From a virus, in the UHGV virus genome UHGV-1493261: a stretch of DNA of 64,000 bases; one strand, 5' to 3'. Positions within the stretch are counted from its first letter, which is position 1, and every line of letters starts with the position of its first letter. A program made the translations under genes and the position numbers. Below, piece after piece: positions 16,545 through 64,000 of the stretch. Below the pieces are notes generated by a model. It was not told where the DNA came from. It worked only from the letters and a program-made list of their open reading frames with translations, and searched no databases.

Positions 16545-16594
16545 AGTCTCAGCCCTTAAATAGATAGAGTGTTATGGCTATTTAGGACTAGATT

Positions 16595-39671: not shown

Positions 39672-39839
39672 TTACTTTTTCTTCAGCTCTTCCAGTTTGG
39701 CTTCGATTTGTTCTAGGATATCTTTACCCTTCTGAACAATCACTTCACCATCTTGCGCGTGTTTACGGAAGACCAAAGCACCAGCGATGAAGCCGACAAC
39801 CGCGCCAGGAAGCGCATAAACCAGCAGATCTTGTAACAT
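39672..39839 (-). CDS. Small TM protein (55 aa)
   Basis: Not in ORF track. GAGAGGA RBS before ATG; MLQDLLVYALPGAVVGFIAGALVFRKHAQDGEVIVQKGKDILEQIEAKLEELKKK; terminator directly downstream. Confidence 0.45.
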   Translation of the reverse strand: MLQDLLVYALPGAVVGFIAGALVFRKHAQDGEVIVQKGKDILEQIEAKLEELKKK

Positions 39840-39875
39840 GATAATATCCTCTCTTTATAGGCGAGGATATTTATA

Positions 39876-44026: not shown

Positions 44027-44052
44027 AGGGGGAATTATATCCCCCTTTGGTT
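44027..44052 (-). terminator. Hairpin / putative terminator
   Basis: AGGGGGA-ATTATA-TCCCCCT with a T-rich flank; sits between the polymerase stop and the lipoprotein start. Confidence 0.4.
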
Positions 44053-44059
44053 TATTGAA

Positions 44060-45641
44060 TCAACCTTTCTTCTTTTGCATCATGGCAAGAAGGTTCACAC
44101 GGCGCTTGTGTGACCAGCCGACCACGTCGAGGATAGACTGAATCGGATCAATGAAGGACTTCTCAAAGGCCGCCTGATAATCCACCCATTTGCCCAGACC
44201 AAGCTCCTCAGGGAAGAACTCAGGATATGCGAAGTAATTCTGGCCGAATGGGTTGCCCGGCTTCAACAACACCATCTGTACCTTATCACCAGACTCGATC
44301 ATCGGTAGACCCAGATCTTCGTTCTTCTCAACCAGACGGTTGTAACCCACACAAGCCTTGGCAGCAAAATGAGCACCAGAGATGAACGATCCGTCAGCAG
44401 CCACACACTTCTCTATGTCGGACACGCCTGACGCCTTGGCGATATCGTCTACAGAGAGTTTCATGTACTCCTCTTTGTACTGGGAGATGAGCGTCTGCAC
44501 TTCCTCTTCGGTGCCGAGTAGGATCTTCTCATAGCACTTAACAAGACGCTCACGACACCATTCCGGCGTGGTGGACTTGCGGGCTTCCAGACCTTTGAAC
44601 TTGATCTTCGGCTTCTCGTACTTGATACCCTCACTGTCGTACACGGCCATGGCATACATCTTCTTGGCTCGCCAGACAGCGGCTGACGCAATGACCTCAC
44701 GCTCCCATACCATGCGCTGTTCAAATCCGTTCATGGTGTTACACAGAAGCTGTGCCCACTCATTGGTCTTCGGCTGGTAGTTGTCTTTGATCCATTGGTC
44801 GATATTATCAACCATAGCATGATGGTCAGTAACATCAGGCCACAACTGCTTGACAAGACGCTCAATGCAGATGTAGTTGGAGTCGGTATCCCCTGCGATG
44901 ACGAAGTCCTGGCCTGTTGTACCACACAGCTTGTTCAGATAGTCATCAGTGTAACGCTTGTTCCACTTGTTGATCAGCTGACCGGATGTGGTGATGGCTT
45001 CGGCAATGTTGAGGTTGAAGTACTCTTTGAACCAGACGTTCGAGATAGCGCCATAACCTGCGTTCATCAAGATCTTCAGACCTTGCTGTAGGGTGTCTTG
45101 AGCAACACCCAGATCTTCCCACTTCTTCATCACTTCGGTCAGGGCATCAAGATCAATGTTCTTGTGCTCTTCATACCACTCTGGGTCATAGTAGCGAGAC
45201 TTCATGGCAGACTCAAGATGGAAGTCGCCCTTCGACATCTCTTTACACCAGCCAGCCCACTGCTCATACTTCAGACCCTTGGCCTTCTCTACTTTACGGT
45301 CGCTGTAGATACCACGCATGATTTCAGACAGGAACGACATCTTCTCGTTGCTGAAGAATTGAACGTTCGGCGTGAACGACACGTTGTAGCGGCGCAGGGT
45401 TTCAAAGTGGAACTCACCCAGGGCAACCAACTCATCAACAACCTGCAGGCGTTCGTCAACCGCACGCAACAGCTTGTCGTGAAGGGCTTTCATCAACCGA
45501 CGTTTGTGCATCGGCGTTGCCATGTTATTCATCTGAGCAGCCAGCTCTTCACACATAGCCTCAATAATCTCACGGCGCTGGTGTTTGTCGCCAACGATAG
45601 TCTCTGGACCGAGGTTGTACTGCTGAATGATGTGTGGATAT
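44060..45641 (-). CDS. DNA polymerase (family B, T4 gp43-like), exon 2
   Basis: Begins YPHIIQQYNLGPETI (completes motif A; T4 SLYPSIIRQVNISPETI). Motif B KILMNAGYG; motif C VIAGDTDS. The first 16 codons of the ORF-track ORF are assigned to the intron. Confidence 0.8.
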
Positions 45642-46824
45642 CGCTTGTGTTCAGGGATGCTCGCTATTTCATCCCCCGTGTTCGTCATTCAGTTTACCGA
45701 ACACTGCTGTATGTCACCATACAGGCCAGACTATATCACAATCTCCAGAACTGTCTAGAGATTCTCTCCATTTCGAGGCGCTTGCCCCTACTCTACTCGC
45801 TTCAGATCAGACGCTTAGTCGTCGGTCTTGCTTTCGATAGTCGTTGAACCTTGTCACCCACTACTTCAAGGAAATCATCTGGGTTTAACCCAGCGTAACC
45901 AAAGAGTCGTTTGAAGTTTCTTGCCAACTTGCCCCACTCTACAGTCTTCTTACCTAAATCCTGTTGTGTCAAGCAATGAGCGGTTATTTCTTCCCCACTC
46001 ATTCTGGCAAACATTTCCTTCCTTTTCTCTAAAGAATCTTTAAATTTCTTCTTCGCTTTCGGATCGGCGTTTGGTCCCACCTGGCCTTTCTTTGCGCCTA
46101 TTATACATTTCAACTCACCACTCAAATATCTCGGGTCTTGCGTTGAAACTTTGATAACACTACCATCCAGGAGTCTTACGGGGACAGTGCCTTTGTGAAC
46201 AAGACTGGAATTGGCTTTAATTCTTTCAGCTGTTTCTTTATCAGCGCCGAAATAAGCCTTACCCTTCATATCTGCCCTTTTAACACCCTTCTTAGATTTG
46301 GATATCTTTCTTCTGACATCTTCCCTCTTCGAAGGATTCCCTTCTCCCGTCAACATTTCAACATTCTTTCTTCTCAATTCCTCACTTAGTTCCCCGTTAT
46401 GGGATTTCATCATGAAGTAGGCGAAGAACGCTGATTTATCTTCTGGTAATGCTTCATGCAATAGGCGATGAGCCTCCACATGATCTTTGTACAACAGGTT
46501 TACGATATTCCATTCTTCTTTAGAGAACTCAGGATAATGCGCCTGGGGCAGTATATGATGGTGCTCACTGTATTCATCACCATCATAACTGTGTTCCTCA
46601 CAGAACTTCAAATATTCTTCTATCTTAGATTCTTCAATTACCAAATCATTTCGATAGAACAGACTCTTGATTTCCTTCATGACCTTACTCCTTCACCGTG
46701 GTTACAGAGTATTTAGGTCTTCGTGGCCGACCTTGGCTGCTGATTATCTCTAAAGAGACTTCCCAGCAATTAAGAGAGTTATTCGATGGTTGTCGCCAAC
46801 CAAAGCCCCTATGCTGCTAACTTA
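45642..46824 (-). mobile_element. Group I intron (inferred) in the DNA polymerase gene, carrying an HNH homing endonuclease
   Basis: Exon 1 stops 5 codons after DLNSL; exon 2 resumes at YPHII. Boundaries placed so the 5' exon ends in U and the intron ends in G, giving DLNSLYPHII. GATATAGTC (S-element-like) lies near the 3' end. Confidence 0.6.
45802..46680 (-). CDS. HNH homing endonuclease (intron-encoded)
   Basis: 292 aa. HNH motif HHILPQAHYPEF...NIVNLLYKDHVEAH; Lys-rich C-terminal DNA-binding region. Confidence 0.75.
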   Translation of the reverse strand: MKEIKSLFYRNDLVIEESKIEEYLKFCEEHSYDGDEYSEHHHILPQAHYPEFSKEEWNIVNLLYKDHVEAHRLLHEALPEDKSAFFAYFMMKSHNGELSEELRRKNVEMLTGEGNPSKREDVRRKISKSKKGVKRADMKGKAYFGADKETAERIKANSSLVHKGTVPVRLLDGSVIKVSTQDPRYLSGELKCIIGAKKGQVGPNADPKAKKKFKDSLEKRKEMFARMSGEEITAHCLTQQDLGKKTVEWGKLARNFKRLFGYAGLNPDDFLEVVGDKVQRLSKARPTTKRLI

Positions 46825-48242
46825 AGGGAGTTCAAATCTTCCGAGAAGACCCAGAAGTAGATTCCTGGTGTCACATCCATGACGTATGCACCCTCAAAGT
46901 CGGTCGGACCATCGTATACACGCTGGATCTTAGGCACTATCCCCTTCTCATACAGGCGATAGTAGCACATGGCCAGCCACGGAGCCACAGTGCCCAGACC
47001 GTCTTCATAGTTGGACTTGGTGCGGTACGCAAGGACGAACATCAGCTGGAGCAGACGCAGCTTCTGTTCAAGTCGCCATACCAGCTTAACGTCTTTGATA
47101 CCATATCGGGTGTGTTTGCAGTAGTCGTTGAAGTACAGATCAAAGAGCGACTTGCTCTCACTGTAGTCCATCTTCTTCTCACCCAGCTCACAATACGCAA
47201 TCCAGTCAAGAGAGTAGCGTTCACGGGTGGTGTACGTGTGTTTCTTGTAGATCTGCATATAATCGAGCATAGGGCAACCCACGAACTGATACGTCGTGAT
47301 GTCACCCTTCTTATCACGGATGATGCGCTTCTTAATGATGCCCCAAGGACTGAGGCGCGACGTTTCAGCCTCACCCAGAACCTGATTCATGCGCTCAACA
47401 AGATAAGGGCTATCAAACGTCTCAATGTTCCAGCCAGTCCATCCGTCGAACTGACGCTGTGACCAGAAGTCTAGGAACGAGCGCAGCAGATCTTGTTCGG
47501 TGGTGAACTCCTGATAAACAACCTCAAGGCCGCCGATCTCTTTGTCTTCGGTGTCATATGCGAACTTATTGCGGTCTTTGGCACAGGGCATACCCCAGAC
47601 CATGAACTTATTGGTCGCCATATCCTGAAGCTGGATCAGGGTAATGGGGAACGCCGCATTCATGTCTTGGGTGATCTTGCCGTTGCTGTCAATGATAGGG
47701 AACTGATCAGTGACGTTGTTGCTGATGAAAGAACCAGGGAAGTGCTCACGGACAAAATCATGGTTGGCCAGCACTTGTTTATGGAAGCGGCGAATGCGCG
47801 CCTCATTCCCTTTGAACGTCTGCTGCTCAATGGTTGGGTGAGGGAATGGACCTTTGGTCATCTTTCCGTCTTTCCACCCGGCGGAGAACACTTCGATATC
47901 GAGGTTAGCAATATGGATGTTGGTGTAATCCGGCTCAATCTTTCCAGGAAAGCTATGGGCGATGAACTGGTATGCATAATCGGTCTGCCCGTAAATGGCA
48001 GCACCCTGGACTTCCTTGTACTCTTCAAGATAGTTGTCAGCGTCACGCATGGAAGGGAACTGCTTGGCTACCAGGGGTTCATTGAGCAGGCCGACCTTTT
48101 CAACATTTGAATAGTCAGCCGTGGGTAAATAGAGAGTAGGTTCGAATTTCTTTTTCAACAGACGGCGATTACCCATGTCATCTGCAATTCGAATCAACAG
48201 GTCATTGCCCCTGCGGGCAACGTTCGTATAGAAAACGGTCAT
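46825..48242 (-). CDS. DNA polymerase (family B, T4 gp43-like), exon 1
   Basis: N-terminal 3'-5' exonuclease domain (Exo I ANLDIEV); ends in the first half of motif A (DLNSL). Confidence 0.8.
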
Positions 48243-50299: not shown

Positions 50300-50444
50300 G
50301 TTAGGTTCCTCAGTGGGTTAGCCATATGGGGTATTTAGGCTTCCCGCTTGGCAAAGCCTGGTTTGTACAGGACGCATATCGGAAATGTTGGAGGAAGGTT
50401 TTCATAGATACCCCACACTGGTTGTATGGGGTATTTAGGAGGGA

Positions 50445-52500: not shown

Positions 52501-52709
52501 TCGATGGGATGGGTTGAAAGACTACACGCTTGCACTGGTACTGCCTTATGGGAGAGCGCGTCAGGAGTCGAACCTGAAGTCGTAAGCGTAGAGAAAGCTA
52601 TTTGCATTTCACTATCCCCGCTCCGATTTTCTTAACTTCCTAAACACCCCGATTACGAGAGAGTCGACATGCACATCTTCTAACTCTTCAGGAAGTCACG
52701 CCCGTAATT

Positions 52710-52798
52710 TGGCGGAAGGTGAAGGATTCGAACCTTCGGGGGCTAAAAGCCCCACTCGATTAGCAGTCGAGTCCCTTAAACCTCTCGGGCAACCTTCC
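52710..52798 (-). tRNA. tRNA-Ser (anticodon GCT)
   Basis: Manual cloverleaf: acceptor GGAAGGT/ACCTTCC, anticodon loop CTGCTAA, long variable arm GGGGCTTTTAGCCCC, T-loop GGTTCGAATCC, encoded CCA. Confidence 0.7.
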
Positions 52799-53016
52799 AA
52801 TTTGGACGGGCTTCGCACCCGATTGAGCATTTGATCTGCCGTAGCCCAACTCCCCGCGCTTCACAGCGCCGATTGGTTAACTGGTGACCAGTGCCTTCTG
52901 GTTAGATCCCCTGGAACTTTACAGGCTTCGCGCCCAACCATTTCTGGAAGTTGAGGCATCGTTTCCGATGTGGAGTCCCCTCATTTTACACAGCTGGCTG
53001 CAACGCTTACCGTGTT

Positions 53017-53100
53017 TGGTGTGAGTGGATGGATTCGAACCACCGCGCTGTTACGGGGAGATTTACAGTCTCCTGCATTCGACCGCTCTGCCACACTCAC
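53017..53100 (-). tRNA. tRNA-Tyr (anticodon GTA)
   Basis: Acceptor GTGAGTG/CACTCAC, anticodon stem GGAGA/TCTCC with loop CTGTAAA, 12-nt variable arm, T-arm GGTGG-TTCGAAT-CCATC, encoded CCA. Confidence 0.65.
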
Positions 53101-53216
53101 ATTTGGTGGGTGTTACTATCGTCGTCTTCGGATTCCGTTCGGCTATTGGACGTCGCTTCAAGAGCTTGTCGGTCGCGTACTTCTTGCCTATTCACTTTCG
53201 TTCACACCCATAATTC

Positions 53217-53291
53217 TGGCGGTGCCTCAAGGACTCGAACCTTGCTATCACGGATTAACAGTCCGCCGCTTCACCATTTAGCTAAAGCACC
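53217..53291 (-). tRNA. tRNA-Asn (anticodon GTT)
   Basis: Acceptor GGTGCTT/AGGCACC (one G-U), anticodon loop CTGTTAA, T-arm CAAGG-TTCGAGT-CCTTG, discriminator G, CCA. Confidence 0.7.
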
Positions 53292-53299
53292 TGAATATT

Positions 53300-53375
53300 T
53301 GGCATGCCCTCCAGGACTCGAACCTGGGTTGTACGGTTTTGGAGACCGACCTCATAGCCGCCAGATCAAGGGCAC
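53300..53375 (-). tRNA. tRNA-Trp (anticodon CCA)
   Basis: 76 nt with canonical numbering: T-arm CCAGG-TTCGAGT-CCTGG, anticodon loop CTCCAAA, acceptor GTGCCCT/AGGGCAT, CCA. Confidence 0.7.
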
Positions 53376-53443
53376 ACACCTTACAACGAACTATACTGTA
53401 TAAAGGTTATTGAAACAAACGTTTATTTTATTCAACCATAATA

Positions 53444-53520
53444 TGGTGATCCTGATTGGGTTTGAACCAATGACCAATGAATTATGAGTTCACTGCTCTA
53501 ACCGACTGAGCTACAGGACC
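53444..53520 (-). tRNA. tRNA with CAT anticodon (elongator Met or Ile-lysidine type)
   Basis: Acceptor GGTCCTG/CAGGATC, canonical D-arm TAGCTCAGTCGGTTAGAGC, anticodon loop CTCATAA, T-arm ATTGG-TTCAAAC-CCAAT, CCA. Anticodon stem lacks initiator features. Confidence 0.7.
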
Positions 53521-56060: not shown

Positions 56061-56425
56061 TCCGGAGCCTCACTCGATTGATTAAATGTCTCCGTTATTA
56101 TATTGGAGGTATGTTTATTGAATATAAACACAGGAATGACCAATAAAATAATGACAGTGATTATTAATAGGTAAAAACTACTTTTCTACAACATCAAGAA
56201 ACTGTATCCTAACGCAGTGCCCTTCGAGTTGTGAGTGTTAACGAACAACGAGAAGCAGCCTCCATGGCTGTGGAATGGTGCTGCCCGCACAGGGCGGTGT
56301 TACGAGCGAGGGCGTCAGCCCCCTCGCGAGTTATATTCGAATAAATTAAACGCGCGCGAGCGTTTTGATTCCCGTTGGCTAAATATCTTCAACACCATAT
56401 TCAAACTCAGGTGATGGAGATTATC

Positions 56426-59044: not shown

Positions 59045-60235
59045 ATGGCCGATTTTCTGAGTCAATACACAGGTCAGCAGATTGATGCAATCCTTTCTTC
59101 TGTTGACGATAAAGTAAGTAAGTCTGATGTTGTCAACGATTTCTCTGTTGATGACCCGTTGTTCCCTCCGTCAGCTCATTTGACATACGAGCTGAAGCGT
59201 TCTGTGGATAATATCTACGACACACTGGAAAACAAAGTGATCCGCACCGACGGCGGTGAACAAACGATCAACGGGAGAAAGACTTTTGTTGCGTTGTTGA
59301 CCGCCAACGGCGGCCTGACTGTTCCGGCTGGAAAGAAACTGTCTATCGCGGATGAGCCTACGATAGCGACAGATGGTGTTAACCTGAGCATGTTGAGAAA
59401 GCATGGTGTCAGTGAAGACACTACCCCACCTGGTTCTGGTTTGGCTGGGGAGTTGTTGACATCCGGATATTACAAATTCAATTTGGATTTCACCAAATTG
59501 TCTGCGTATACCGGATCAACGTTGCCGACTTCAGTTCCAGTACAAACAGATTCTGGAGCGCGTTATTGGACAATGACTGCATTTTTTGATGCGTTGTTTG
59601 CAGACAACCGATTTAATGGATATGTGGCAACGACAGCGTATGATGCAGATATGCTGAGTTTAGAGTCCCAGATTAATAACATCAACACATCGTTGAACGG
59701 GAAAGTCAACACCTCGACTTACAACACGAAGATGGCGTCATTGGATTTGAGTATCTCCAATATCAATACGTCTCTGGGTAATAAAGTCGAGGTTAGCACG
59801 TACAACACGAAGATGACATCTCTGGATAACAGCATCAGTTCTCTTTCCAGTGATAAAGTTAGTGTATCAACGTATAATGCCAAGATGACCTCTGTCGACA
59901 ATAGTTTAGGGAACGCCGTTTATCGTACCAAAACGAATTTGTCTTCTTACACGGTTTCGGCTTCTGGGACGACGGCTCTTCCAGATTTTGATTTGGTGAA
60001 CCTTTGTCAAATACTGGTAACTGCGCAATGGGGGACAGGTAACGTTGTTGATACATATCGAGTAACCATAACTCGTGACGGAACGATCAAATCAGAGTTG
60101 TTGGTTCAGAAAAGTACGAGCGGTACAGTGACGTTCACAGGGGCTGTGGTGGGTGGTAAATTGAGAATTTCCGTTGTTAATGCGAATACAACAACTGCCT
60201 GTTCGGTCGATTATTCTATTGTAGCTTCTTTCTAA
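59045..60235 (+). CDS. Tail fiber protein with internal 21-aa tandem repeats
   Basis: 396 aa. Repeats NINTSLNGKVNTSTYNTKMASLDLSIS / NINTSLGNKVEVSTYNTKMTSLDNSIS / ...VSVSTYNAKMTSVDNSLGN. Confidence 0.6.
   Translation: MADFLSQYTGQQIDAILSSVDDKVSKSDVVNDFSVDDPLFPPSAHLTYELKRSVDNIYDTLENKVIRTDGGEQTINGRKTFVALLTANGGLTVPAGKKLSIADEPTIATDGVNLSMLRKHGVSEDTTPPGSGLAGELLTSGYYKFNLDFTKLSAYTGSTLPTSVPVQTDSGARYWTMTAFFDALFADNRFNGYVATTAYDADMLSLESQINNINTSLNGKVNTSTYNTKMASLDLSISNINTSLGNKVEVSTYNTKMTSLDNSISSLSSDKVSVSTYNAKMTSVDNSLGNAVYRTKTNLSSYTVSASGTTALPDFDLVNLCQILVTAQWGTGNVVDTYRVTITRDGTIKSELLVQKSTSGTVTFTGAVVGGKLRISVVNANTTTACSVDYSIVASF
59682..59915 (+). repeat. ~63-nt tandem repeats within the tail fiber gene
   Basis: About three diverged copies encoding the STYNTKM-containing heptad-like unit. 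Confidence 0.6.
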
Positions 60236-60236
60236 A

Positions 60237-60280
60237 ACTAAATACCCCCTAGATGACATGAATACATTTAGGGGTATTAC
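60237..60280 (+). promoter_or_regulatory. Promoter-like CTAAATACCCC motif with hairpin leader upstream of the tail spike gene
   Basis: CTAAATACCCCCTA...TAGGGGTATT inverted repeat ending 5 nt before the ATG at 60283; same architecture at 63485-63523 and, on the minus strand, at 50326-50439. Confidence 0.4.
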
Positions 60281-60282
60281 AA

Positions 60283-63200
60283 ATGGCCAACAAACCAACA
60301 CAGCCTCTTTTCCCTTTGGGTTTAGAAACTTCTGAGTCTTCGAATATAAAAGGCTTCAACAACTCCGGCACTATTGAGCATTCCCATGGTGCCGTAATGA
60401 CATTTCCTGAAGATACTGAAGTTACAGGTCTTCCATCTTCTGTACGTTACAATCCTGATAGTGATGAATTCGAAGGTTATTACGAAAATGGTGGTTGGTT
60501 GCCGCTGGGTGGCGGTGGCATCCGCTGGGAAGTCCTTCCGCATGCCTCTACGGCAACGCTCACTGAAGGGCGAGGCTATCTCATTAATAATACCACAGGG
60601 GCATCTACAGTGGTTCTCCCTTCCCCTACGCGTATTGGGGATTCCGTTACTATTTGTGACGCTTATGGGAAATTTGCCACTTACCCATTGACCGTGTCTC
60701 CTTCTGGAAATAATTTGTATGGCTCCACTGAAGACATGGCTATAACAACTGATAACGTATCAGCAACGTTCACTTGGTCTGGACCTGAACAAGGTTGGAT
60801 TATTACATCCGGCGTCGGTCTTGGCCAAGGTCGTGTCTACAGTCGTGAAATCTTTACAAAAATTTTGGCGTCTGAAACAAGTTCTGTCGCTCTCAATACC
60901 CCACCAACAATCGTGGACGTGTATGCTGATGGAAAACGTCTTGCGGAATCCAAATATTCACTAGATGGGAATGTAATCATTTTCAGTCCTTCTTTGCCAG
61001 CCAGCACAGAACTTCAGGTGATTGAATATACTCCTATTCAATTGGGTATTGGGGATGGTTCTGGCTCTTCCACGATTACCTGGGTCTATAATGGGGGTTC
61101 AGCGATTGGTGGTGAAACCGAAATCACGTTGGACGTCGTTGTTGATGATGTTCCGGCCATTGATATAAACGGAAGTCGCCAGTATAAAAATCTGGGATTC
61201 ACATTCGATCCATTAACCAGTAAAATCTCTCTTGCACAAGAACTGGAACCAGAGGATGAAGTTGTTGTAATTATCAATGGAACACCAAACATCTATAATC
61301 AAATTGATTATACTTTGCGGGAAGTTGCTCGTGTAACCAATGTTAAAGATACAGAGGTCGTTTATTTTAGTGTTGGTGCTGCGTTAAGTGGGTATAAAGT
61401 TATTTATGACAAGGAGACGCAAAGGGCTTATCCCTTGCCTGCTGATATTGTCCCTGGTACTACTGCTGTCAGTCTTAGTTCTTCCGCTGTACTTGTACAT
61501 TCAGCGGGTTCTGTAGATCTCGGGGAATTGGCTGTATCTCGTGAAGAGTACGTCACATTGTCCGGGTCATTTGATACCGGTGTAACAGTTAATACCAAGA
61601 ATGAACTGGTTGTCTTTACTGACGGCAAGTACCGTTGGGATGGGGTGTTGCCTAAAGAAGTTTCTGCTGGTTCAACCCCTTCGACAACTGGTGGAATTGG
61701 TTTAGGGAAGTGGGTTAGTGTTGGCGATGCATCACTTAGATCAGAGTTGTCAAAAAGTGATGGTTTTTTATTGATTGGTGGACTGAAAGAAACATTTTAT
61801 CGAACATTTGATAACATCCAAATCATGAAGTCAGATGATAATCTAAAAGATGGGGATGTAGTTTCAACCAAGGGGTTTTATACAAAAGGTGATTTAGGTG
61901 GTTCGACATACCGAATAACAGCATCTGCTACGGCGGATGGTTGTAATGTGATTGCATTAGATAACGGTTTGTTCGCAGTTAACACTAAAACCCGCGTGCG
62001 TATCCAAGAGTTGGGGGTAGTAGATAACCCATCCGTGGATCAGTCTGCAATATTTAACACAGCTATGTCATACGCTGGTGGGGAAGTTATCATTGATGGT
62101 ATCTCAATTTTACTTACAGCAACCGTAACAGTTGCACGGTCTATGCATTGCGTGAACGGGGGGAAACTAATAACTACCTCAAGTACATACGCAAATATTG
62201 TGAGGATTTCAAAGGATAACGGATTTTTCACTTTAAACATAGACGCTAATAAAGCGGCGTGTATGCCAGTCAGGGTGACAGGGAACGGTAATAAATTTAC
62301 AGCAATTTCCATTACTGGACTTTATGCACCTTCTGGTTCCGGGACGGGAGTTATTGGAGTCCAGTTTCAGGGGTCTAATAATGTCGTGGATTCTATTGTT
62401 GGTTCTGACTGTGTAAACACCGGAAACACAAACGCGTCAATGCCGCAGTTGTTTATGTTCTATGATGGTTCTAAGAATAACTACATAGGGTCTGTGTATG
62501 CCTCTGGGTGCTGCTCTATTTTAAACTCAGCACAAGATATAGAAGTTACGGTGGGCAGGATGTATCTTGTTGACTGCCAGGACAATGGGATATATGGCGG
62601 TGGGCGTATTCATGTCGATTACTTCCATTACGATGGTAGTGAGGAAGCAATCGCTGGCTCATCCCTAGCGGACCTTACCATAACTTACGCAGAAGTTGGT
62701 GGTGAAGGGCTTGGTGCAGTTTCGTATGCCGATATGACCCGTATGAGCATAGACCATTTGCACATATTTAGGGGTACGGATGGGGATACCCCAAAATCAG
62801 TGGTAAATGCCCGAACAGTCGTCACAACGGCTGGCGTATTATCTATTGGGCGTTTAACAGGTGAGATTGAAGGTGTACGTCTTTTTTCATGCGACAAAGG
62901 TATGTTAAATCAGTTTATTCTTGGGGCGTGCGATATTTTGTTTGTATATAACGCTTCCCGTATGAACGAGCGGATAGCCGACATACGCAACGTCAGGTCG
63001 TTTCGTATCGGCGACATGAGCGTGAGATTTTGGGATAAAGGTAATGCTTTGGCTAGTACATCCCTTAATGTACCCTTTGATTTCCCTGTTTCCCCGTCAG
63101 CACCGAGCACATTAAACAGTCTTAACTTCATCGGTTTGATGGTTGACCAGGCAACACCTCAGCCGAATGTAACATTTCAAGGGCGCGGTCTGAGAAACTC

Positions 63201-63423: not shown

Positions 63424-63429
63424 AACTAA

Positions 63430-63455
63430 CCCCGCTTTGGCGGGGTTCTTATTAT
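63430..63455 (+). terminator. Intrinsic terminator
   Basis: AACCCCGC-TTTG-GCGGGGTT followed by CTTATT. Confidence 0.55.
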
Positions 63456-63484
63456 ACCTTTGTTCATAAATTTTATTAGTTCAG

Positions 63485-63523
63485 CCTAAATACCCCATAT
63501 TGGTCATCCTTTATGGGGTATTA
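63485..63523 (+). promoter_or_regulatory. Promoter-like CCTAAATACCCC motif with hairpin leader upstream of the second tail spike gene
   Basis: CCTAAATACCCCAT-(14 nt)-ATGGGGTATT, then ATG at 63526. Confidence 0.4.
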
Positions 63524-63525
63524 TC

Positions 63526-64000
63526 ATGATTTCTCAATTCAATCAACCACGCGGCTCCACTTCCATAGAAGTTAACAAACAATCTATCGCTCGAAATTTC
63601 GGTGTCAAAGAAGACGAAGTCATTTATTTCACTGCTGGTATTGATCTCAGCGGATTTAAAGTAATTTATGATGAGTCTACCCAACGGGCTTATTCTCTTC
63701 CTTCAGGTATTGTTTCAGGAACCACTGCTGTTAGTCTTAGTGCTGACGCTGTTCTTGTGCACTCAGCTGGTTCTATAGACCTCGGAGAATTAGCCGTATC
63801 CCGTGAGGAATATGTTACATTGCCCGGGTCCTTTAATTCTGGTGCTACGCTTAATGCTAAAAATGAAATACTTACCCATACAACAGGAAAATATCGTTGG
63901 GATGGTGAATTACCTAAAATAGTGCCTGCTGGTTCAACTCCAGATAGTACTGGCGGTGTTAAATTAGGAGCATGGGTTAGTGTTGGTGATGCATCACTGC
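63526..64000 (+). CDS. Tail spike protein (second paralog), 3'-partial at window edge
   Basis: N-terminus MISQFNQ...VIYDESTQRAYSLPSGIVSGTTAVSLSADAVLVHSAGSIDLGELAVSREEYVTLPGSF...GKYRWDGELPK...WVSVGDASL duplicates the internal module of the upstream spike. Confidence 0.65.
   Translation, partial: MISQFNQPRGSTSIEVNKQSIARNFGVKEDEVIYFTAGIDLSGFKVIYDESTQRAYSLPSGIVSGTTAVSLSADAVLVHSAGSIDLGELAVSREEYVTLPGSFNSGATLNAKNEILTHTTGKYRWDGELPKIVPAGSTPDSTGGVKLGAWVSVGDASL

Follow-up and report, generated by a model that had tools for sequence, protein, structure and literature searches.

In phage T4, the late promoter is an 8-bp box, TATAAATA, located about one helical turn before the transcription start, at positions -13 to -6, and in phage Aeh1, positions -13/-12 are occupied by a/gC, yielding (A/G)CTAAATA (PMC2988020). 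In the case of the T4 genes e, 49, soc and I-TevI, as well as Aeh1 mobE, the ribosome-binding site is sequestered by a hairpin, the late promoter lies within or next to the 5′ arm of this hairpin, and the late RNA is made without that arm (PMC3014915). The ViI-like phages (family Ackermannviridae) possess homologues of gp55, gp33 and gp45, the late-promoter sequence being still unidentified when the corresponding genomes were described (PMC3184105; PMC3121705). Two motifs, CTAAATAcCcc and TTCAAT[N14]TATAAT, are listed as regulatory motifs specific for this family (PMC7283392). The sequence CTAAATAcCcc does not appear in the papers on LIMEstone and CBA120. Its probable origin is reportedly the 2012 paper on ‘Viunalikevirus’. 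The literature accessible to us lists only the positions of the motif and is silent on pairing with the Shine-Dalgarno (SD) sequence, the likely 2012 source paper lying outside that scope; nor did the literature searched yield a transcriptome or start-site study of any Ackermannviridae phage.

Here, we explored a 64,000-nucleotide stretch of viral DNA (UHGV-1493261; hereafter, the window), in which recurrent copies of a 12-mer containing TAAATA had been noticed upstream of tail-spike and other genes. The motif itself is known, and so, from T4, is the mechanism that we propose for it; this mechanism appears to be undescribed in Ackermannviridae.

A known family motif, probably a late promoter, in an Agtrevirus-like genome

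The window represents the genome of an Agtrevirus-like (ViI-like) phage of the family Ackermannviridae, with nucleotide identity to Agtrevirus genomes of 91-97%. Across positions 36000-58000, it is 95-97% identical to Escherichia phages RPN242, ZQ1 and A221 and Enterobacter phage fGh-Ecl02, and 91% identical to Shigella phage AG3. Similarity to Kuttervirus genomes is also seen at the tail-spike end. The 12-mer CCTAAATACCCC occurs in the window 3 times in its exact form, once on the plus and twice on the minus strand, and once more with a single mismatch, as ACTAAATACCCC, in front of the gene for tail spike 1 (TSP1), 2 nt past the stop codon of the preceding gene (59045-60235) (Table 1). With up to 2 mismatches allowed, 12 matches were found against 2.67 expected, a number reached in 0 of 100 shuffles. 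CTAAATAcCcc is represented by four copies in the window, and six CCCC-type copies are present in AG3. The repeated CTAAATACCCC is, in fact, the already described motif, and putative late-gene promoter, of ViI-like phages: the sequence is identical, the phage belongs to the family, and the companion motif TTCAAT[N14]TATAAT is present as well (9 matches with no more than 1 mismatch, compared to 0.31 expected). Given that the motif is already a hallmark of these phages, finding it again is routine.

The core of the motif could be characterized across complete genomes. We catalogued all TAAATA copies of the window and of the entire AG3 genome and scanned the hexamers located 24-52 nt before start codons; for the Kuttervirus SeTs-2 and for the control set described below, gene starts were taken from an ORF caller. 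In AG3, TAAATA is the most strongly enriched hexamer in this region, which contains 23 of its 44 genomic copies, compared to 0.64 expected (p = 7e-31), and it is likewise the top hexamer before the gene starts of SeTs-2 (22 of 67 copies; p = 2.7e-24). Altogether, 28 copies in AG3 lie 23-43 nt before annotated start codons. The genes behind them encode gp48, gp4, gp54, gp2, gp5, gp6, gp14, gp18, gp22, three tail spikes and a large structural protein, and also the endolysin, a RuvC-like resolvase and UvsW, so that the box precedes virion and lysis genes in the same orientation, as in T4. Short divergent intergenic regions, namely gp48/gp4 in the window (16555-16586) and gp54/gp2 in AG3, carry TAAATA on both strands, which supports a promoter role because such regions must hold a promoter for each direction. 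Homologues of gp55 (the late sigma factor), gp33 and gp45 are annotated in AG3 as orf122, orf076 and orf165, respectively; these genes fall outside the 64-kb window.

These findings, along with the previously listed family motif, provide good support for the original prediction of a phage-specific late promoter, and the predicted likeness to the T4 late-promoter core is an identity, the six-base core TAAATA being common to the window, AG3 and T4. The perfect T4 box, TATAAATA, is found at some sites only (the gene for a 55-aa protein in the window; gp54, orf124 and orf107 in AG3), most of the others having the form (A/G/C)CTAAATA, resembling that of Aeh1. The possibility that the motif would be missing from other late genes materialized for the full 12-mer only; most late genes do have the core, (C)TAAATA, at their starts. 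No conserved upstream element was seen. The segment following the box is often C-rich (CCCC) in these phages and A/T-rich in T4.

Of the four positions originally reported, those before TSP1 and tail spike 2 (TSP2) and the two on the minus strand were all borne out, but the latter two are not both promoters of the acidic-protein gene (152 aa, phrog_3852). The copy at 50428-50439 begins a few nucleotides past the stop codon of a 404-aa gene and precedes only a 32-codon remnant ORF. In L001, L004-L006, L008 and SeTs-2, an intact gene of ~150 codons is located between the two motifs, with the motif and the hairpin in front of it, and the same gene is cut to a stub in the window, AG3, L002 and L003. 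Thus, the notion of a tandem double promoter is rejected because relatives hold a whole gene between the two copies. The stub (50307-50427, minus strand) is out of frame in the window and in frame in L002. A further near-match, CCTAAACACCCC at 52639 on the plus strand, was also discarded as a promoter: it lies in the tRNA region with no gene downstream on that strand, and we take it to be the product of chance or decay.

Table 1. Predicted late-promoter boxes, associated hairpins and neighbouring features of the window, and arms of comparable hairpins in related phages
Feature	Position	Strand	5′ arm	3′ arm	Remarks
Late-promoter box (predicted) ACTAAATACCCC, TSP1	60237..60248	+			core CTAAATA 60238-60244; conserved in 13 relatives
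Hairpin, TSP1	60241-60255 / 60265-60278	+			-15.3 kcal/mol; z -4.72; ATG 60283
Late-promoter box (predicted) CCTAAATACCCC, tail spike 2	63485..63496	+			exact match
Hairpin, tail spike 2	63489-63499 / 63512-63522	+	AATACCCCATA	TATGGGGTATT	-19.6 kcal/mol; z -5.08; SD covered; ATG 63526
CCTAAATACCCC with hairpin	50408..50439	-	ATACCCCATAC	GTGTGGGGTAT	box 50428-50439; arms 50424-50434 / 50408-50418; -18.1 kcal/mol; z -4.88; promoter cassette of the gene deleted here
32-codon remnant ORF	50307..50405	-			left after deletion of a ~150-codon gene intact in relatives
CCTAAATACCCC directly before 152-aa acidic protein gene	50328..50339	-			ATG 50299; SD GAGGA; no hairpin; motif kept in 8 relatives
Late-promoter box (predicted) CTAAATATCTTC, gp6 baseplate-wedge operon	56379..56390	+			ATG 56426
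Divergent TAAATAG pair, one per strand	16555..16586	.			gp48-like (ATG 16544, -) / head-completion gp4-like (ATG 16595, +)
Box and hairpin, 55-aa protein gene	39843..39875	-	TAAATATCCTC	GAGGATATT	perfect TATAAATA (39868-39875), then TCCTC pairing with SD GAGGATATT; ATG 39839; z -3.88
Hairpin, HNH homing endonuclease gene	46681..46719	-	GACCTAAATACTCT	AGGAGTAAGGTC	TAAATA box and SD enclosed; ATG 46680; z -3.32
Bidirectional intrinsic-terminator-like hairpin	63428..63447	.			between tail spike 1 and the tail spike 2 promoter
Endolysin gene (AG3)			AATACCTTCGCA	TGCGGAGGTATT	
RuvC-like gene (AG3; Agtrevirus form)			TAAATAGCCCATA	TATGGGCTATTTA	
RuvC-like gene (Kuttervirus/Limestonevirus-like loci)			AAATACCCATAA	TTATGGGTATTT	
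orf174 (AG3)			AAATACCCCCAT	ATGGGGGTATTT	

The cassette extending from the box through the hairpin to the ATG of TSP2 is base-for-base identical across Kuttervirus genomes (L143-L158, relatives of 63450-63528), and the sequence just before the box is unrelated between these phages. Thus, no upstream promoter element belongs to the cassette, and the sequence pattern suggests that the cassette travels with the N-terminal module of the tail spike during exchange. Such identity between unrelated flanks, the mosaicism of tail-spike genes and the deletion of a gene between two copies of the motif would also be expected if the repeated 12-15-mers and their inverted partners were boundaries of recombination or module exchange of tail-spike cassettes, with no regulatory role. 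We regard this explanation as extremely unlikely, given that the same box is found at many non-mosaic late genes and shows extreme positional enrichment, and that hairpins of other sequence are present at the endolysin, RuvC-like and HNH genes. Furthermore, both copies of the motif outlast the deletion, which therefore was not a motif-to-motif recombination.

Hairpins that begin within the predicted promoter box

The claim that each copy of the motif is followed by an inverted-repeat partner holds for 3 of the 4 sites (z-scores of -4.7 to -5.1) and fails for 50328-50339, where there is no GGGGTAT partner and the sequence folds no better than shuffled sequence (z -0.84). At the hairpin-bearing sites, as predicted, the structure ends close to the start codon, the 3′ arm stopping 3-5 nt short of the ATG. 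The 5′ arm (AATACCCC...) starts within the box and overlaps TAAATA by 4-6 nt, and the 3′ arm (...GGGGTATT) holds the only SD-like purine run before the ATG, which in the case of TSP1 is AGGGG.

Hairpins of this kind are not restricted to the 12-mer. The one preceding the 55-aa protein gene has the same architecture as those at the tail-spike sites but different arm sequences, and the hairpin of the HNH homing endonuclease gene encloses both the box and the SD. Across the window, the z-scores of the hairpins range from -3.3 to -5.1, and both the loop length (5-17 nt) and the arm sequence vary from site to site. A scan of the window against Rfam returned five tRNAs only, and no RNA family fits any of the motif-linked hairpins.

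Partition-function folding predicts how differently the SD region is exposed in the two kinds of RNA considered, namely, a long RNA and one initiated at the box. The probability that this region is unpaired is 0.02 in the long RNA vs 0.33 in the box-initiated RNA at TSP1, 0.09 vs 0.50 at TSP2, 0.01 vs 0.48 at the 50428 site, 0.17 vs 0.65 at the 55-aa gene, and 0.28 vs 0.77 at the HNH endonuclease gene. Thus, the stable stem with a 3′ arm lying over the SD that typifies the T4 hairpins is found here too, with unpaired probabilities of 0.01-0.28 in the long RNA.

The original prediction envisaged these structures as leader hairpins in the 5′ UTR. Under this explanation, transcription would start before or at the motif, and the hairpin, as part of the late transcript itself, would stabilize the mRNA or tune its translation. 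Protection of mRNAs by stable stem-loops at the 5′ end is a known phenomenon, and the hairpins described here are both strong and conserved. Nevertheless, these mechanics are probably wrong, and we consider a leader role unlikely: the 5′ arm overlaps TAAATA by several nucleotides, and a box positioned at -13 to -6 would place the start point inside or beyond that arm. In addition, there is no conservation ahead of the box in the TSP2 cassette, and, with the SD covered, the transcripts for abundant structural proteins would be inhibited.

Conversely, the hairpin could serve the transcript that arrives from upstream, as a 3′ stability barrier, a processing site or a weak attenuator, in which case its overlap with the promoter would simply reflect genome compactness. 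Indeed, the structures at TSP1 and at the 50428 site directly follow stop codons, and in AG3 (L023), TAAATA lies within the loops of GC-rich, terminator-like hairpins at 60850 and 66273 (minus strand). The latter, however, are followed by T-runs, unlike the SD-masking hairpins, whose stems have no U-tract after them. Moreover, the 3′ arm regularly falls on the SD of the gene that follows, the complementarity is tied to TAAATA sites rather than to gene ends in general, and a separate, true terminator precedes the TSP2 cassette. We therefore hold a function in the upstream transcript to be quite unlikely. In our scan for sigma-70 promoters and terminators, the promoter matches were uninformative and only the terminator calls were used. 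According to these calls, the same-direction genes upstream of TSP1, the 50428 site, the HNH gene and the 55-aa gene are not followed by a terminator, the gp6 operon running directly into TSP1, whereas one is present before TSP2.

Site-specific complementarity between promoters and Shine-Dalgarno regions

We assessed the pairing between promoter and SD with a permutation test: for each segment consisting of TAAATA and the 10 nt that follow, the energy of the duplex with the 20 nt ahead of the gene's own start was compared to that with the SD regions of other genes. The cognate duplexes are markedly more stable in AG3 (-7.45 vs -4.38 ± 0.43 kcal/mol for non-cognate ones; p = 5e-5), in SeTs-2 (-7.71 vs -5.03 ± 0.51 kcal/mol; p = 1e-4) and at the 12 sites of the window (-8.63 vs -5.50 ± 0.81 kcal/mol; p = 1.5e-4). 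In AG3, 8 of the 28 late-promoter sites reach -10 kcal/mol or lower. When the 5′ segment was moved upstream, the effect weakened progressively (p = 0.02 at -16 nt, 0.08 at -20 nt and 0.23 at -24 nt), and among 113 SD-bearing genes without TAAATA there was no cognate pairing effect (p = 0.1-0.9).

Comparison of the stems among relatives indicates that selection acts on pairing rather than on the sequence as such. The stems of the RuvC-like gene in Agtrevirus and in Kuttervirus/Limestonevirus-like loci (Table 1) differ by a paired indel, with a G missing from one arm and its C partner from the opposite arm, and in L057, an A-U pair is replaced by U-A, a stem of 13-15 bp being kept in every variant; because the MAFFT alignment misplaced the paired indel, each of these leader variants was folded separately. 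Likewise, the arms of orf174 change from CCCCCAT/ATGGGGG in AG3 to CCCCCAA/TTGGGGG in SeTs-2. The endolysin stem is 98.7% paired over six distinct sequences, compared to 45-53% with slid partners, and its three variable pairs alternate only among C-G, U·G and G·U. Variants of the 55-aa gene stem differ by G·U, and two distant loci (~60% protein identity) have AACTC/GAGTT at the same positions. By contrast, at the CCCC sites, the stems are invariant and the loops are variable; these sites therefore demonstrate constraint and provide no covariation.

In principle, the inverted repeat could act on the level of DNA, either as the operator of a dimeric regulator or, once extruded as a cruciform or hairpin, by aiding the gp55 polymerase in recognizing or opening the promoter on the hypermodified DNA of these phages. 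The repeats are centred on promoters, and divergent promoter pairs form true DNA palindromes. Hairpin promoters are known in phage N4, so that, if this explanation were correct, it would constitute the second case of structure-dependent promoters. However, the arms and the loop lengths differ by site, which is not compatible with a common operator, and the repeat is absent from most TAAATA promoters. Furthermore, the stem transitions tallied over all sets, albeit a small sample, comprise seven of the G·U type vs one of the A·C type, and sense-strand G·U corresponds to A·C mismatches on the other strand; this bias favours the sense-strand RNA as the molecule in which the stem is formed. All considered, action on DNA strikes us as very improbable.

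Predicted masking of ribosome-binding sites on read-through RNA

We consider it fairly probable that the box is a gp55/gp33/gp45-dependent late promoter and that the attached hairpin masks the ribosome-binding site on read-through RNA only. Under this proposal, (C)TAAATA, with the long form CCTAAATACCCCATA, would be the -10-type box of the promoter, and by analogy with the T4 geometry, we infer a start point 5-7 nt after the box. Where the box is followed by CCCC, late RNA would then start at the ATA immediately after this tract, without the 5′ arm. Indeed, because the box overlaps the 5′ arm, the T4 geometry implies that promoter-initiated RNA should lack the hairpin. At about one third of the promoters, the end of the box and the adjoining pyrimidine tract (CCCC, CCTTC or TCCTC) are complementary to the SD region 25-40 nt downstream. 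RNA entering from upstream, the existence and amount of which we infer, would contain both arms, such that the hairpin hides the ribosome-binding site, whereas RNA started at the promoter would be devoid of the 5′ arm and translatable. The genes for the endolysin, the Holliday-junction resolvase and the homing endonuclease sit inside blocks of early genes, and in these cases, the arrangement would likely serve to keep read-through RNA from being translated early.

For the tail spikes, the proposal runs into counterarguments. The promoter of the gp6 operon is itself a TAAATA box and no terminator intervenes before TSP1, so that masked TSP1 RNA would also be late; thus, gating at TSP1 cannot be an early/late switch. 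The terminator before TSP2 limits read-through into this gene, and two thirds of the TAAATA sites carry no such hairpin. We are hesitant about a broader version of the proposal, in which the C-rich extension of the late promoter evolved as a built-in anti-SD and, for a third of the late genes, among them tail spikes within late operons, only the RNA made from their own promoter is translated; it is possible but, in our judgement, somewhat doubtful. Pairing with GGGG is not the sole reason for CCCC, given that CCCC also follows boxes without a pairing partner, at the acidic-protein and UvsW genes. The tract probably plays a part of its own in promoter function.

The parallels with T4 are nevertheless close. 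In both cases, the 3′ arm lies over the SD and the late-promoter box (predicted, in the phages studied here) is within or next to the 5′ arm, and the same classes of genes are involved: lysozyme (e), the gene 49 resolvase and homing endonucleases in T4, and the endolysin, the RuvC-like resolvase and the HNH homing endonuclease here. What differs is that the structure is frequent, being associated with ~8 of 28 late promoters in AG3, that it reaches tail-spike genes of a late operon, for which any read-through RNA would be late as well, and that the consensus extension of the promoter, CCCC, pairs with an unusual GGGG Shine-Dalgarno sequence. Only two features exceed what is known from T4, namely, the frequency (about one third of the late promoters) and the pairing of CCCC with GGGG. 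What our analysis adds, then, is that late promoters of ViI-like phages often appear to be fused to a structure that would mask the ribosome-binding site, extending the logic of T4 lysozyme, gene 49 and I-TevI to a distant T4 relative.

Ackermannviridae phages are applied widely to combat Salmonella, E. coli O157, Shigella and Dickeya. If the proposal is correct, late promoters in this family could be located by sequence alone, gene annotation and the assignment of expression timing would improve, and engineering of tail-spike cassettes should transfer the promoter-hairpin unit along with the gene.

Additional features of the window

About one half of the genomic TAAATA copies in AG3 and one third in SeTs-2 are located just before gene starts, which hints at possible avoidance of the hexamer in the remainder of these genomes. 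The putative early promoter represented by the companion motif, TTCAAT[N14]TATAAT, is found at 44034-44059 and 56097-56122 and at 7 other sites. The minus strand also carries a cluster of five tRNA genes (52713-53520), which separates the acidic-gene region from the baseplate/tail-spike operon.

The DNA polymerase gene (44060-48242, minus strand) is split after residue 473 (...SEDLNSL | YPHII...), inside a conserved polymerase motif, by an insert of ~1.1 kb that carries the HNH homing endonuclease gene (45802-46680); in AG3, the gene is uninterrupted and encodes 999 aa. The Rfam scan detected no group I intron.

The 55-aa protein (39672-39875, minus strand; phrog_3879) is conserved and is annotated as a membrane protein in AG3. 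Speculatively, its regulation is that expected for a lysis-timing protein such as a holin; the holin of ViI-like phages could not be identified in the 2011 genome papers on CBA120 and AG3 (PMC3184105; PMC3121705).

The C run of the TSP1 promoter (60245-60249) consists of five C's, compared to four in 13 of 13 related loci, and the extra C leaves one base of the stem bulged out. Either genuine variation or an error in sequencing the homopolymer could account for it. Finally, the outward-facing TAAATAG boxes between the gp48-like and gp4-like genes jointly form a palindrome, and the same arrangement is observed between gp54 and gp2 in AG3.
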